NCBI RefSeq assembly: GCF_051903065.1
Contig: NZ_CP178439.1
Source of the DNA: Escherichia coli
Lineage (GTDB): Bacteria > Pseudomonadota > Gammaproteobacteria > Enterobacterales > Enterobacteriaceae
Strand: one strand, 5' to 3'
DNA length: 64,000 nucleotides
Shown here piece by piece: positions 43,001-52,000 of the stretch (the first letter of the stretch is position 1; each line of letters opens with the position of its first letter). A program made the position numbers.

Positions 43001-46000
43001 TTGACCTCTGACATTATTACAACAATCTTAAGCATTTAAATTGATGAAGGAGCTCAGGTCAGCTGACTTCGTCGTAAAACTGCCGCAAGCGCTGGGAGGC
43101 TGCAAATTCAATTCGTGACTTCAGCAGTTTGGCGACGGCCGCAAAGACATCAACGACCACGGAGTTCCCAAACTGTCTGTAAGCCTGTGTATTGGACACA
43201 GGGATACGGAAAACACTTTCCCCGGGTTTATCGAAGCCCATTAGCCTGCTGCATTCACGTGGCGTTAGCATGCGTGGCCGACGGTCCATGTTGTATGTGT
43301 TATGGAAATCAGTTTCTCCCAGTTCATGAGACCAGCCCCGATCAATAAGAATTTCAGATCCGTCTTTCATATAGCGGCTTGAGAGGGTTCTGGTGACACT
43401 ATTAACATTGGAAGGATCTACTAGTCCAAAACCAAAACCATTGCCTTTTGCCGCATGTTTCTTTGCATAGTTGTATAAGTACTCCCAGAGTTTAGGGGAG
43501 AGGATGTATTTACTATCTACGCTCGGATCCAGTAAATCTGAGAGAGAAGGGCGCTTGTCCGGATAAAAGTCTTTAATGTCTCTCAGAGTAAAACCGTCTT
43601 TCAGACGTAGGTCGCGGCGAAAACCAATAAGGACGATACGTTCACGGTGCTGGGGTCGGAAATGACGGCCATCGATGACTTTAGGATCATCCGCGCCCGT
43701 GCTTTCGCTGTTTGCGACGTCGTAGCCAAGCTCATCGAGCGTTTTCATGATGATGTTAAAGGTATTACCCTTATCGTGACTCTTCAGATTTTTTACGTTT
43801 TCCAGAACAAAAATTGCAGGTTGTTTTGCCCGGATGATCCTGGCCACATCAAAGAAGAGCGTACCCTGAGTGTCGCACTCGAAACCGTGTTTGCGACCCA
43901 TAGAGTTCTTTTTACTGACACCGGCGATGCTGAATGGCTGGCATGGAAATCCCGCAAGAAGAACATCATGATCCGGGATAGAGGCATCGATAAATTTGTA
44001 TGCCTCGTCATCAGTAACCTCGGGCCGGTTGCTAAGAGTGATGTCACGGATGTCTGAATTGAAGCGGTGCTCGTTCTCATCGCAATACCAGTTCGCCCGG
44101 TAAGTACGGCTGGAATAAGTATTCCATTCGCTCGTGAAAAGACATTTACCACCGATGGCATCAAATCCGCTTCGCAGTCCACCTATCCCTGCAAACAGAT
44201 CGATAAAGCTAAAGTGCCTGTCCTCATAATCAGCAGGTCGTGAAGGTATTAAAGTCTGTAGATAGCGTCCATCTGCGATACTCAGCTCACAATGCTCAGG
44301 TATGCATGTAACCTGACGTTTAAGGGATGCACGGGACCAATTACTGCCATTTTCATCATTTAATACCTGAGCCAGATATTTCAGGTCATAAATGGTCGAA
44401 GCTGTTAACAAAGTTTTGTGGATCAGAGATGGTGTTTTATCCACATCATTCAGGTCTGTCTCAAGATCATGAGTGTAACGTTTCATCCAAACTCTCTCAG
44501 GAATAATATCTTTGAGATAGATTAACACGCTTAATTTGGATTATTTTTTGGTTCAGGTTCTAAATTTATTGTGATTATTCTGCCTTTAAGTTGCAAAAAG
44601 ATTGGTTTTAAGCCCGCCCATGAAATAATGACTTGTTAAAATACTGCCTGTAAATAGGCTTGTGGATACATGTCTGTACTCAACAAATCAAGGTGAAATG
44701 ATGTTTTTTTTAACAAAGTTACTTTTGCCCATCATGATTGTTGTATTCCCAGTGGCGTCCTGGGGGAACTCAACAACTTTTGAGGCAAAGGTGGTTAAGA
44801 TTGTTGACGGTGACACCATAACTGCGTTGGATGCTCAAAACACAACCATCAAAATACGGATGTATGGTATAGACGCTCCTGAATCTAAACAGGCTTTTGG
44901 CCAAAAAGCAAAACAGGCCTTAACCACAGCTATAGCAACTAAAATCGTTACCGTGATAGACCATGGTACGGATATCTATGGCCGTATGTTAGGTACCATC
45001 TGGTTAGATGGATATGATATCAATGCCTCTATGGTGGACAGTGGATATGCGTGGGTTTATCGGTTCGAAGATAACGCCATTGTCCCTGGCTATATCAAAT
45101 ATGAATCCGCAGCACAAAAGGAGGCAAAAGGGTTATGGGCAGACACCAACCCTGTCCCACCATGGCAGTGGAGACAGGCAAACGAAAAGCCCAGAAAGGT
45201 GAAAGAGAAGAAATAACCATGATGAAAGAGCCTCATCCGTTACTTCAGTTGGTACTAAACGATTCCGGTCGTCTAACCATGCCTGTTTATTATAGAGATC
45301 AACAGTATTGCCCGACTTGCCTTACAAAGGTGTTGAAGAGTGAGGATGGAAGTTTGGCGCACCTCGGGGAAATAAATCAAAATACATGTAGACCTTCTAT
45401 TTCAGTAGTTGTGACAAAAGCAATTATTGAAATGTTATGTGACGGGGAAAAAATATATGTAAATCCAATACGACACCGAGGCCGGGTGCTGGCACCCTCA
45501 GTAATTTTTTCTCCCGACACTCACACTTTCAAACCGTTTATAAATACAGACTATCAGCCTGTGGGAGCAAACTGGAAAAGTGAAAAGGGATATAAACTCG
45601 GTCTGTTTTATCTCAAAGATCGAGCCAACTCTATCAATAAAGAGGAATTTGATTTCATTGCCGTTATAGACCCTGAGGCAATGCAGAAAGAATTTATTTC
45701 GGCCTGGTCTGAGGTTGATGAAAAAAATCCATTGGAAACGCTGAAGCAGATCTTACGATCTAAAAACAACTCTTCTTTATGGGTAAAATGGCCTGGCAAA
45801 ATTGAGCATGCGCAAAAAGGAAATTACAACGAAAATTACTGGTTCGATTATCAATCTGATAATCAGGAAGTGAACTGTACGGTCTCTGTTGTAGGTATCG
45901 AAGGTAACAGTTCCGGTGAGACAATTTATAGATTGCAAACTTTGCTAAAGCGTAAGCTCAATGAATATCAACTGGTTCGGTCTTTAGGGACTATTATGCT

Positions 46001-49000: not shown

Positions 49001-52000
49001 TCAGATTCTTCCGTTTGTGAGATACCGATTTTGTTAGACATTTTTTTTAGTATCTTTCCGAGCATGGACACACAGGCATCTAGACTTAACGATGTTGAAA
49101 TTTTGGTCGTATTAAAATCCTCCTGCGAAAGTGAAATCATCCATGTATTATCTTTATGATAGTCGGTAATATAAATAAAATGAGATGTAAAAGGCGTTGA
49201 GTGATTGAACTCTCCTAAGTTCCATCCATACTGACTCACTGTATTTGAGCTAAGTTCTTTGTCGGTAATGTTCATAATTCATACCTTTCGATAAAGTCTG
49301 TAATGATAATTAGCTATCTCAAAGGACCAGAACAACTCTTGAAATAACCACACTCGAAGAATTTATCATATTGAACACCCCTACCTAATAACCTTGCCGA
49401 CTTAATAAATCACAATAGCCCTCCCCTGACATTTTAAAATGCTACTTGAATTTTTGATAGCTTATGGTTGTTTTATGTTCTTTGTGATACGCATATGTCA
49501 TCTTCTCTTTCCAGTACCAATCTTGTAGATCCTGCAAGTCTAGCCCATTTTTCTCACGTATGCTTTCGTGTAATTCGCTAAGCGCGAGTTTATCATTAGG
49601 TTTATAAATGGCTAATTTTTCTTCAAATAAATCCAGCCAACGTTTCCCCATCTTACGACGCAAAACAAACACCATCGTGATAAATGTAATGAAATGCACA
49701 GCAATTAGTTCCAACTTATGCGATTGCTGACCAGATAAAATTACTATTGTAACAACAGGGATGGCCGTATATAAAGCAATCAAAGCGACCATAAGTTGGT
49801 ATGGTTTTTCCCGTATTACCATGTTCATGGGTAAACCAGAGGACGCTACTGCTTGCCAAAATCTTAAAGGGGAGCCCGCAGAATTCGGAAAAAATCGTAC
49901 GCTAAGGTTTTCCGGGCATCCGTAAGGGCCGAAACTTCCCGTCTTCCAGTCTGCGGCTCTGCCGCCAGACGTAATCGCCGGTTAGGTTGATGTGCTCCCA
50001 GCCCAGCGGCGACAGGAATTGCAGCAGCTCGCCGTCCACCGGCTTGCCGGCCTCGACCAACCCCTGGGTGGCGCGTTCCAGGTACACCGTGTTCCACAGC
50101 ACGATAGCCGCCGTCACCAGGTTGAGGCCGCTGGCCCGGTAGCGCTGCTGCTCGAAGCTCCGATCCCTGATTTCCCCAAGGCGGTTGAAGAACACCGCCC
50201 TGGCCAGCGAGTTGCGCGCCTCACCTTTGTTCAGGCCGGCATGCACGCGGCGGCGCAGTTCAACACTTTGCAGCCAGTCCAGGATGAACAGCGTGCGCTC
50301 GATCCGGCCCAGCTCGCGCAGGGCCACGGCCAGTCCGTTCTGGCGCGGGTAGCTGCCGAGCTTGCGCAGCATCAGCGAGGCGGTGACGGTGCCCTGCTTG
50401 ATCGAGCTGGCCAGGCGCAGGATGTCGTCCCAGTGGGCACGCACGTGCTTGATGTTCAGGGTGCCGCCGATCAGCGGGCGCAACGTCGGGTAGGCTTGCA
50501 CGCCCTGCGGCACGTACAGCTTGGTTTCGCCGAGGTCGCGGATGCGCGGCGCGAAGCGGAAGCCTAGCAGGTGCATCAGGGCAAAGACGTGATCGGTGAA
50601 GCCGGCCGTGTCGGTGTAGTGCTCCTCGATCCGCAGGTCGGACTCGTGGTACAGCAGGCCGTCGAGCACATAGGTGGAATCGCGGACGCCGACATTCACC
50701 ACGCGGGTGCTGAACGGCGCGTACTGGTCGGAGATATGGGTATAGAACAGCCGTCCCGGCTCGCTACCGTACTTCGGGTGGCACTGTTGCAAATAGTCGG
50801 TGGTGATAAACTTATCATCCCCTTTTGCTGATGGAGCTGCACATGAACCCATTCAAAGGCCGGCATTTTCAGCGTGACATCATTCTGTGGGCCGTACGCT
50901 GGTACTGCAAATACGGCATCAGTTACCGTGAGCTGCAGGAGATGCTGGCTGAACGCGGAGTGAATGTCGATCACTCCACGATTTACCGCTGGGTTCAGCG
51001 TTATGCGCCTGAAATGGAAAAACGGCTGCGCTGGTACTGGCGTAACCCTTCCGATCTTTGCCCGTGGCACATGGATGAAACCTACGTGAAGGTCAATGGC
51101 CGCTGGGCGTATCTGTACCGGGCCGTCGACAGCCGGGGCCGCACTGTCGATTTTTATCTCTCCTCCCGTCGTAACAGCAAAGCTGCATACCGGTTTCTGG
51201 GTAAAATCCTCAACAACGTGAAGAAGTGGCAGATCCCGCGATTCATCAACACGGATAAAGCGCCCGCCTATGGTCGCGCGCTTGCTCTGCTCAAACGCGA
51301 AGGCCGGTGCCCGTCTGACGTTGAACACCGACAGATTAAGTACCGGAACAACGTGATTGAATGCGATCATGGCAAACTGAAACGGATAATCAACGCCACG
51401 CTGGGATTTAAATCCATGAAGACGGCTTACGCCACCATCAAAGGTATTGAGGTGATGCGTGCACTACGCAAAGGCCAGGCCTCAGCATTTTATTATGGTG
51501 ATCCCCTGGGCGAAATGCGCCTGGTAAGCAGAGTTTTTGAAATGTAAGGCCTTTGAATAAGACAAAAGGCTGCCTCATCGCTAACTTTGCAACAGTGCCG
51601 ACAAGAGTACGCCGCAGCTCGATCTTTTGGCTCGTGTCGAACGAGAGCTACCGGTGCGGCTCGACCAAGAGCGCACCGATATGGTTGTTTGCCATGGTGA
51701 TCCCTGCATGCCGAACTTCATGGTGGACCCTAAAACTCTTCAATGCACGGGTCTGATCGACCTTGGGCGGCTCGGAACAGCAGATCGCTATGCCGATTTG
51801 GCACTCATGATTGCTAACGCCGAAGAGAACTGGGCAGCGCCAGATGAAGCAGAGCGCGCCTTCGCTGTCCTATTCAATGTATTGGGGATCGAAGCCCCCG
51901 ACCGCGAACGCCTTGCCTTCTATCTGCGATTGGACCCTCTGACTTGGGGTTGATGTTCATGCCGCCTGTTTTTCCTGCTCATTGGCACGTTTCGCAACCT

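Follow-up and report, generated by a model that had tools for sequence, protein, structure and literature searches.

Within a 64,000-nt window of Escherichia coli DNA (RefSeq assembly GCF_051903065.1, contig NZ_CP178439.1) we analyzed the stretch from position 44600 to 49868, in which nuc, a gene for a thermonuclease homologue, heads a run of small genes and faces a divergently oriented DNA methylase gene on its left. Ten open reading frames (ORFs) make up 83% of the stretch, and the gaps between them measure 2 to 50 nt except for two of 336 and 166 nt. An initial annotation of this DNA had described the stretch as visibly richer in AT than its surroundings, and the GC profile agreed with this. 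Its GC content is 38.5% (local values 31-40%), compared to 46.7% in the adjacent backbone (36500-44528), 60.0% in the transposon flank on the right and 50.5% in the whole window. It is the lowest-GC 5.3-kb stretch of the window, only 0.8% of 5269-bp windows being equally low. The features on which the following paragraphs rely are listed here by window position, with TM denoting a transmembrane segment and IS an insertion sequence; designations of the type L004 refer to related loci used for comparison.

43059-44486, minus strand: Dcm-like DNA cytosine-5 methyltransferase, assigned from annotation and orthologues; divergent partner of the nuclease operon, outside the coordinates of the initial annotation
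44487-44700, no strand: AT-rich divergent intergenic region between the methylase gene and nuc (GC about 0.36-0.38), presumed bidirectional promoter region
44701-45216, plus strand: nuc, 171 aa, SNase/thermonuclease homologue (Pfam SNase), predicted to be exported by an N-terminal Sec-type signal peptide read by eye
45219-46115, plus strand: 298-aa orphan partner of nuc, no signal peptide, starting 2 nt after the nuc stop codon
46163-46570, plus strand: chimeric 135-aa ORF, codons 1-56 (46163-46330) of a 104-aa two-TM gene in frame with a 77-aa soluble protein (46337-46570)
46616-46870, plus strand: 84-aa protein with TM-loop-TM layout by hydropathy, identical in the R478 lineage and in L015
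46908-47195, plus strand: 95-aa protein with TM-loop-TM layout by hydropathy, sharing 35% identity with the 99-aa protein that takes its place in the operons of L004-L006
47232-47462, plus strand: 76-aa small membrane protein by hydropathy (RefSeq: 65 aa from 47265)
47350-47600, no strand: insertion and recombination hotspot with four IS insertions (47353-47588), a lineage breakpoint and a recombination junction
47799-48260, plus strand: 153-aa lineage-specific ORFan in a segment (47465-48246) that is replaced by a 2.4-kb gene set in the R478-type lineage
48290-48697, plus strand: 135-aa putative minimal enzyme of transglutaminase/papain-like fold with invariant Cys33, His73 and Asp88
48748-49275, minus strand: 175-aa acidic soluble protein with homologues in L012 (31% identity) and L014 (24%), 26 alignment columns being invariant
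49442-49828, minus strand: 128-aa protein with two N-terminal TMs by hydropathy and a charged C-terminal domain
49869-49906, no strand: 38-bp terminal inverted repeat of a Tn1721/TnAs1-type transposon (GGGGAGCCCGCAGAATTCGGAAAAAATCGTACGCTAAG), where the backbone DNA ends

Hundreds of large conjugative plasmids typed as IncHI2A/MOBH/MPF_F, from E. coli, Salmonella, Klebsiella and Enterobacter, contain the 5.4-kb sequence at 100% identity, and 636 IncHI2-type records cover at least 80% of the stretch at 100% identity, the transposon end excluded. In the identical plasmids the genes to its left are conserved backbone genes, coding for the Dcm-like methylase, a DUF1173 protein, a DUF4942 protein and an H-NS paralogue, and the same flanks are found in R478 and p33822-1, with lineage-specific indels. 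Its borders are of two kinds, the conserved methylase gene on the left and a later Tn1721 insertion on the right. The stretch had been predicted to end at a Tn1721 repeat, and this boundary is exact: the repeat (GGGGAGCCCGCAGAATTCGG...CGCTAAG) starts at 49869, directly at the end of the stretch, and in pM160133_p1 it is followed by a full TnAs1 transposase gene. Identity across IncHI2 plasmids together with the conserved genes on the left identifies the stretch as IncHI2 backbone, cut on the right by the transposon. Although its composition is distinct from that of the neighboring backbone, as for an island, it is neither absent from close relatives nor bounded by mobile elements on both sides, since it occurs throughout IncHI2 and its core in IncHI1. 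It is a vertically conserved low-GC accessory backbone of an IncHI2 conjugative plasmid and not an acquired island. Its low GC content would then reflect H-NS-silenced accessory backbone rather than foreign origin. The core shared with IncHI1 and remoter relatives comprises nuc, the 298-aa partner and the 77-, 95-, 135- and 175-aa proteins, at 24-76% protein identity.

In the window, the Tn1721/TnAs1 transposase gene (49869-50852) is cut by IS26 (50825 onward) about 1 kb from the repeat, so that this stretch lacks the large backbone gene normally found ahead of the 128-aa ORF. Elsewhere the 64-kb window consists of resistance DNA arranged as an IS26 mosaic. Counts of promoter-like and terminator-like consensus sequences in the stretch equaled the shuffled expectation and were therefore not used, and an Rfam search of 44000-50000 at a permissive threshold detected no family above chance.

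The initial annotation had recognized a thermonuclease with a signal peptide at the left end, and this identification held. The nuc product matches Pfam SNase (PF00565) over model positions 1-107 of 107 with an i-E of 5.2e-24, and thermonuclease chains in the PDB with an E of 1.3e-10. In the alignment to Staphylococcus aureus nuclease the counterparts of D21, R35, D40, E43 and R87, which include the catalytic and Ca-binding residues, are identical, as are the motifs DGDT, R...D-x-P-E and YGR, while T41 is Ala. The enzyme thus looks catalytically competent as judged by these residues. Its N-terminus reads as a Sec-type leader, MFFLTKLLLPIMIVVFPVAS|WG, by eye, which suggests that the nuclease is exported from the cytoplasm. 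With 68.2 bits (cut-off 180) and 49 bits (cut-off 250), nuc falls below the NCBIfam equivalog thresholds of EcnA (NF047969) and NucI (NF047694), respectively; it is related to these families but an equivalog of neither. Its protein identity is 76% to the IncHI1 orthologues of R27 and pHCM1 and 46-63% to remoter relatives.

A search for homologous gene neighborhoods found the order of the module conserved in IncHI1 and in remoter relatives. The order DUF4942, DUF1173, Dcm, divergent SNase and 298-aa protein recurs in the IncHI1 plasmids R27 and pHCM1, in IncHI1-like DNA within Salmonella and Enterobacter chromosomes and in metagenomic contigs. Across these relatives protein identities are 63-72% for the methylase, 46-76% for nuc and 20-52% for the 298-aa partner; downstream, relatives also keep the soluble 77-aa protein, at 56-62% identity, and the two-TM protein of 95 aa, at 35%. 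The methylase is annotated as DNA cytosine methyltransferase in the identical plasmids, and its orthologues carry the Pfam domains DNA_meth_N and DNA_methylase. Within the operon a 2-nt gap separates nuc from the 298-aa gene and gaps of 36-47 nt separate the subsequent genes, and in L007 nuc and the partner gene overlap; the two genes appear to be translationally coupled. The intergenic region upstream of nuc would serve as promoter region for both directions, with consensus hits there at chance level. In pRWS292.s2 an IS3-family element is inserted in it at 44696-44699, just upstream of the nuc start codon.

The IncHI1-type block, with H-NS, DUF4942, DUF1173, Dcm, nuc and partner genes, was also seen inside bacterial chromosomes (L004 and L005, 4.8-Mb contigs). 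Matching this chromosomal block, methylase, thermonuclease and PLD genes were found co-integrated with Tn10 in monophasic S. Typhimurium (PMC10151351). In R27 the operon runs on into a gene for a PLD-family protein (L010 23639-24418) that gives weak PADLOC hits to DrmC-type PLD domains, and this gene is followed by a DUF3800 gene and then by the tcu genes. We take the PLD-family protein to belong to the same superfamily as the pKM101 Nuc endonuclease. As it follows the nuc operon, IncHI1 encodes two unrelated nuclease-type proteins in a row.

Expression of this module at different temperatures is documented for R27. We assigned the R-numbers from the gene order of NC_002305 and from the labels in the published study (PMC7366339), which gave R0148 as transposase, R0151 as the PLD-family protein, R0152 as the 298-aa homologue, R0153 as nuc (labeled ‘partition protein’) and R0154 as the cytosine methylase. 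In wild-type R27 compared between 25 °C and 37 °C, nuc and the methylase gene were 2.86-fold and 4.73-fold higher at 25 °C (PMC7366339, Tables S3 and S4), and both belong to the short list of non-tra genes that rise at this temperature, most non-tra genes being higher at 37 °C (PMC7366339). The 298-aa homologue was 1.93-fold higher at 25 °C, under the 2-fold threshold of that study (PMC7366339). On the derepressed htdA plasmid at 25 °C, R0151 to R0154 increased 13.5-, 16.3-, 15.6- and 11.1-fold (PMC7366339). By analogy, the nuclease and methylase of IncHI2 would be switched on at the low temperature that permits mating.

Taken together, these observations lead us to a reading that we hold to be reasonably probable, in which this low-GC IncHI2 backbone comprises a nuclease operon and methylase tied to transfer temperature, an insertion zone, and a second block with a Cys-His-Asp enzyme. 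The left half would be an operon divergent from the methylase gene, coding for an exported, Ca2+-dependent, non-specific nuclease, its coupled cytoplasmic 298-aa partner, the 77-aa protein and small inner-membrane proteins. With methylase and nuclease on at mating-permissive temperature, the methylase may pre-methylate plasmid DNA in donors, so that its entry into recipients would be protected from restriction. The site of action of the nuclease may be the periplasm or the exterior of piliated donors or of new transconjugants, where the enzyme would degrade exposed foreign or extracellular nucleic acid and not the protected plasmid strand. The middle zone would collect IS elements and recombination junctions, with different cargo held there by related plasmids, and the right half would be a second backbone block whose sole interpretable gene is that of the small putative Cys-His-Asp enzyme.

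Several points weigh against this reading. We know of no experiment on any IncHI nuclease, and export and activity of nuc are predictions. The expression data come from an IncHI1 plasmid, R27, with R-numbers assigned by gene order, and there the module lies at least ~20 kb from the Tra1 genes. Distant homologues are lacking for the 84-, 76- and 153-aa ORFs, whose contribution may be small. Expression of R0151, the PLD gene that follows the operon in R27, was reduced at 25 °C relative to 37 °C (PMC7366339). Finally, most R27 genes are derepressed in the htdA mutant, so that the rise seen there is not specific to the module (PMC7366339); the wild-type temperature pattern is therefore the more specific evidence.

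The 298-aa partner is an orphan. Profile searches of Pfam, NCBIfam, PADLOC, PHROGs and the PDB returned no match, Foldseek against AFDB50 retrieved its own family only and gave no fold assignment, and an exhaustive profile search of 1.84 billion representative proteins yielded a family of only 25 members. Conserved in it are an N-terminal CPTC...H...C motif and the motifs FDFIAVIDP, GETIY-LQ and LLLDNTGN. Identity is 52% in the IncHI1 plasmids R27 and pHCM1 and 20-37% in metagenomic contigs. One way to read such a protein is as a cytoplasmic immunity protein that neutralizes the nuclease before export, like barstar, NuiA or the colicin immunity proteins. The coupling to nuc and the lack of a signal peptide would suit this role, as would the adjacency of the two genes, which is kept down to about 20% partner identity, and the confinement of the family to this SNase clade (SNase genes, mostly on conjugative plasmids, occur on at least 5000 PLSDB plasmids, the partner in ~1466). 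A single AFDB entry even presents nuc and the partner as one 473-aa protein. Other observations argue against immunity. In L018 (pSH16G1508) a 2.6-kb mcr-1-pap2 cassette is inserted in the 298-aa gene at ~45988-45996, truncating the protein at about codon 257 with loss of the conserved C-terminal helix; the plasmid, complete and typed as conjugative, retains an intact nuc. Adjacency to the SNase gene is lost only in the remotest members, which occur without any SNase in L014 and, after parAB, in a Klebsiella plasmid. The SNase of IncC plasmids, set in another gene context, exists without such a partner, and 298 aa is unusually large for an inhibitor. SNase requires Ca2+ far above the cytoplasmic level, and self-protection should therefore be unnecessary. 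We consider an immunity function quite unlikely and keep to the partner as a coupled cytoplasmic component of a transfer-temperature operon.

Two further observations concern this family. The AFDB entry, H9THC4, is a ‘TNase-like domain-containing protein’ from a Salmonella Heidelberg record; it apparently joins nuc and the 298-aa ORF, which could reflect a frameshift, a sequencing error or a real fusion. In the Klebsiella pneumoniae plasmid NZ_LR890737.1 (MOBH) the 26%-identical homologue (L009 6935-7966) lies directly after parA-parB and is surrounded by several giant genes for proteins with Ig-like domains, with SNase absent nearby.

The position of this homologue, and the label ‘partition protein’ of R0153, bring to mind a stability function as in the parCBA operon of RP4, in which the nuclease would assist in resolving multimers or in partition. 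The ParB protein of RP4 is an SNase-type nuclease of that stability operon, and parB is zygotically induced 4.7-fold in new transconjugants (PMC7314908). However, no recombinase or ParC-like gene was found in window positions 43-50 kb or at the orthologous loci, and a resolvase, ParA or ParC counterpart is missing in and beside the operon. The signal peptide would moreover place the enzyme outside the cytoplasm, away from plasmid multimers, and the ‘partition’ label was transferred by homology and does not stem from a test. We give this explanation only the slimmest chance, and continue with nuc as an envelope or extracellular enzyme of a conjugative plasmid.

Downstream of the partner gene the initial annotation had counted four consecutive small membrane proteins. 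There are indeed four ORFs at 46163-47462, but the first is a fusion with a soluble protein that was produced by a deletion. At 46330|46331 the R478-type lineage has 530 extra bp, which complete the 104-aa gene, contain an 85-aa membrane gene and begin the 77-aa gene, so that its gene set here consists of a 104-aa two-TM, an 85-aa three-TM and a 77-aa soluble protein. From this alignment, the 135-aa ORF is a lineage-specific in-frame fusion made by the 530-bp deletion relative to R478 and p33822-1. In p33822-1 a 1-bp alignment gap frameshifts and shortens the 104-aa membrane gene. The 77-aa protein itself is conserved in L004-L007. Comparison of the segments L002 9664-10361 and L003 4699-5600 showed that the deletion also removed the 85-aa three-TM gene.

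That two of the proteins share a TM-loop-TM architecture was confirmed for the 84- and 95-aa proteins, in both of which a polar loop of ~35 residues separates the TMs; the hydropathy threshold was passed by both TMs of the 84-aa protein and by the second only of the 95-aa protein, whose first TM was read by eye. We rejected paralogy among the small membrane proteins, as there is no detectable sequence similarity between any pair and all-against-all BLASTP of the small proteins gave nothing below an E of ~0.1. The 84-aa protein has no family hit in NCBIfam, PADLOC, PHROGs or Pfam. Between the lineages the 76-aa ORF differs from its R478 counterpart by 12 non-synonymous and 5 synonymous codon changes; for nuc and the partner, dN/dS between IncHI2 lineages is uninformative, with only 1 and 4 substitutions.

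The middle of the stretch accumulates insertions and rearrangements. In plasmids otherwise 100% identical (L019-L022), four different IS occur within 236 bp, a tally that is not a full survey of all records: IS3 at 47353-55, IS10 (IS10/ISVsa5) at 47365-73 and IS903B at 47377-85, all three inside the 76-aa ORF and within 33 bp of each other, and ISKox3 at 47581-88. The clustering in this ORF could stem from target preference or from selection against the ORF. At 47464|47465 the IncHI2 lineages diverge, the window having 782 bp with the 153-aa ORF and p33822-1 having 2.4 kb with five other genes. Furthermore, window positions 46331-47575, which hold the 77-, 84-, 95- and 76-aa genes, are 98-99% identical to the metagenomic contig L015, although backbone genes there are only 23-50% identical. 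The inserted segment in L015 measures ~1.4 kb (4039-5511), and a sister contig, L011, has the empty site (~6605-6648). On the right the segment is joined within a shared 28-bp motif, AGTACGTATAACGAGGATTATGTTAAAT (window 47548-47575), and on the left a gene is truncated at the junction, which points to patch recombination. We considered and rejected a dedicated recombination site for this small-gene tract, since each element has only one copy of the 28-bp motif and the left junction cuts off part of a gene.

The DNA that follows the operon is a hotspot for cargo and for insertions. In relatives it holds a complete Thoeris system (L004), a type VI secretion system (L007), an ars island (R478) or Tn10 (pHCM1). 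The Thoeris genes of L004 (10244-11691) lie ~0.4 kb downstream of the nuclease operon in the chromosomal IncHI1-like segment, and their detection by PADLOC (ThsB 1e-73, ThsA 1.5e-122) served as the positive control for our defence searches. Among the five replacement genes of p33822-1 is one for a 223-aa trypsin-like serine protease with a lipoprotein-like leader (L003 7793-8464), whose PADLOC hits, to protease domains found in defence proteins, are weak; the corresponding scan of the R27 PLD and DUF3800 proteins gave a weak PLD-domain hit to DrmC.

These features bear on the suggestion of the initial annotation that the stretch is reminiscent of a toxin/immunity or abortive-infection island, that is, of an anti-phage locus in which the nuclease or a membrane protein would be the toxin and a neighbor the immunity protein or antitoxin. 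The low GC content and small genes fit this picture, as does the presence of Thoeris and a type VI secretion system at the equivalent position in relatives. The 1.25-kb tract 46331-47575, shared with L015 at 99% identity despite its divergent backbone and absent from the sister contig, thereby behaves like a selected, exchangeable cassette, and the 76-aa ORF is knocked out by three different IS as if its loss were favored. A search of all ten proteins in PADLOC, PHROGs, NCBIfam and Pfam, however, recognized the SNase domain alone and no defence or toxin-antitoxin model. In PADLOC-DB v2 no system signature was matched; the scan returned only a generic match to the SNase domain (C3a212, 3.2e-11) and a single marginal one (E 0.0094). 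This agrees with the earlier remark that none of the genes belongs to a recognizable toxin or defence family. As to a type I toxin-antitoxin system, no known toxin family was found for the small ORFs and no Rfam antisense RNA in 44000-50000. The genes are vertically conserved IncHI backbone and not cargo, and the junctions of the L015 tract are those of patch recombination truncating a gene, not of a clean mobile unit. In R27 the nuclease operon follows the temperature pattern of conjugation and not that of a defence island, and the signal peptide of the nuclease would preclude action on cytoplasmic DNA. The island interpretation did not survive this comparison, and we regard any defence or toxin function of the stretch as very unlikely.

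Another possibility is that, beyond nuc and its conserved partners, the tract is decaying filler silenced by H-NS, in which the chimeric 135-aa ORF, like the 84-, 76- and 153-aa ORFs, would be functionless or nearly so. The deletion that made the chimera, the frameshifted 104-aa gene of p33822-1, the excess of non-synonymous changes and repeated IS disruption in the 76-aa ORF and the wholesale exchange of the 153-aa segment in the other lineage are all in line with decay, and the plasmid encodes its own H-NS paralogue close to this DNA of 31-40% GC. Yet all ORFs are open in both lineages, the 84-aa ORF does not differ between the lineages or in L015, the small-gene tract has recently moved intact between divergent backbones, and the 153-aa protein has a 50%-identical homologue at the same relative position in L015. 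We consider it unlikely, though with some chance of being right, that these genes are filler, and retain the small membrane proteins as parts of the transfer-temperature operon.

To the right of the hotspot lies the second backbone block. The 153-aa protein had been proposed as a possible GNAT-like protein. It has only 11 homologues, the remotest at 50% identity, weak PHROG hits of unknown function, and a K-E-P-G-T-G motif that by eye resembles GNAT motif A. No acetyltransferase match was obtained in Pfam, NCBIfam or PADLOC, and a family-alignment profile search found no acetyltransferase chain among PDB sequences; a GNAT identity is thus unsupported by sequence comparison.

The Cys/His protein noted in the initial annotation was located at 48290-48697 and refined to a protein with the characteristic alpha+beta fold of transglutaminase/papain-like enzymes. 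C33, H73 and D88 are invariant in 7 sequences of 35-93% identity and occupy canonical positions, C33 at the beginning of helix 33-46 and H73 and D88 in strands 73-80 and 83-88. Solved structures share only 9-17% identity with the protein; there is no Pfam hit at E<=0.1, and hence no Transglut_core match, and the family profile retrieved no PDB sequence at E<=10. The 135-aa protein is probably a protein-modifying enzyme, whether deamidase, transglutaminase, protease or acyltransferase. Its R27 orthologue (56% identical) adjoins the same 1111-aa gene as in IncHI2. That the large gene beside this block codes for the Ig-like RSP protein was rejected, as RSP is R0009, located elsewhere in R27.

Profile searches of the PDB with the 298-, 135-, 175- and 153-aa families gave no usable hit. 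The 175-aa protein has no PDB or family hit, and its sole match in PADLOC, to PDC-M24A, is marginal (E 0.0094). The 128-aa protein is kept in the R478-type lineage, where its gene differs by 4 synonymous and 5 non-synonymous codon changes and lies just downstream of a large unannotated gene that is the homologue of the R27 1111-aa gene.

A bolder version of the transfer-temperature reading, to which we assign a low probability, is a transfer-coupled envelope nuclease system, or, separately, a role of the 135-aa Cys-His-Asp enzyme as a plasmid-encoded modifier of host proteins, such as an SseI-like deamidase. The operon of nuc, the 298-aa partner, the 77-aa protein and the membrane proteins would be on together with the pilus, and its nuclease would destroy nucleic acid that enters the periplasm of piliated cells, be it the genomes of pilus-specific RNA or single-stranded DNA phages or competing DNA. 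Anchoring or gating of the nuclease might fall to the membrane proteins and the orphan partner. Independently, the methylase would shield the plasmid from restriction in the recipient.

In database records of the identical plasmids the genes of the stretch appear as ‘thermonuclease family protein’ and at least seven ‘hypothetical protein’ entries. The sequence is thus already present in hundreds of records, the nuclease joins the known plasmid SNase-type nucleases, and overall the stretch is ordinary, functionally uncharacterized IncHI2 backbone. IncHI2 plasmids are major carriers of mcr-1, mcr-9, extended-spectrum beta-lactamases and heavy-metal resistance, and their backbone outside of the transfer genes is mostly annotated as ‘hypothetical’. 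The methylase and the nuclease with its partner, conserved in IncHI1, IncHI2 and relatives and tracking mating temperature, are candidates for plasmid establishment or donor protection. Three points appear worth following. The 298-aa family is very narrow, with its few representatives lacking structural relatives; the 135-aa Cys-His-Asp core would be an unusually small member of a superfamily that includes bacterial effectors; and the hotspot at 47.35-47.6 kb, together with the site just after the operon, is the landing place of mcr-1, Tn10, the ars island, Thoeris and IS, and may be useful for plasmid typing and for understanding cargo uptake by IncHI plasmids.

Compared to known systems, nuc shares with S. 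aureus thermonuclease (Nuc, SNase) the fold family, the catalytic and Ca-binding residues and, as predicted for nuc, Sec export; it is nevertheless remote (E ~1e-10) and a plasmid backbone gene, whereas the staphylococcal enzyme is a chromosomal virulence factor. The hotspot resembles the defence-holding cargo hotspots of plasmids and integrative and conjugative elements in the varied cargo of its relatives, from Thoeris, the type VI secretion system and the ars island to Tn10, mcr-1 and IS, but in the window it carries the 153-aa ORFan only and no recognizable defence system. For the 135-aa protein the closest enzymes listed were Atu2299, S. pyogenes TglA, the Salmonella deamidase SseI, LapG and the arylamine N-acetyltransferases; in contrast to such transglutaminase/papain-like enzymes, it is a bare core without accessory domains. 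RP4/RK2 ParB of the IncP-1 parCBA operon is likewise an SNase homologue on a conjugative plasmid, and both are linked to transfer, parB by its zygotic induction and R27 nuc by mating temperature; the annotation of the R27 orthologue derives from homology to ParB, and the likeness rests on the published description. Unlike parB, nuc is without the resolvase (ParA) and ParC, faces a C5 methylase gene instead of parDE and has partners of its own, namely the 298-aa orphan, the 77-aa protein and the small membrane proteins. The establishment gene sets of the pLS20 family of Bacillus plasmids include a C5 methylase or anti-restriction gene, and four such plasmids also carry an SNase-like thermonuclease (PMC8708921). 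Their host is Gram-positive, their backbone unrelated and the 298-aa partner absent, but the pairing of a thermonuclease with a C5 methylase or anti-restriction gene in a setting linked to transfer is the same as that of nuc and the Dcm-like methylase described here.

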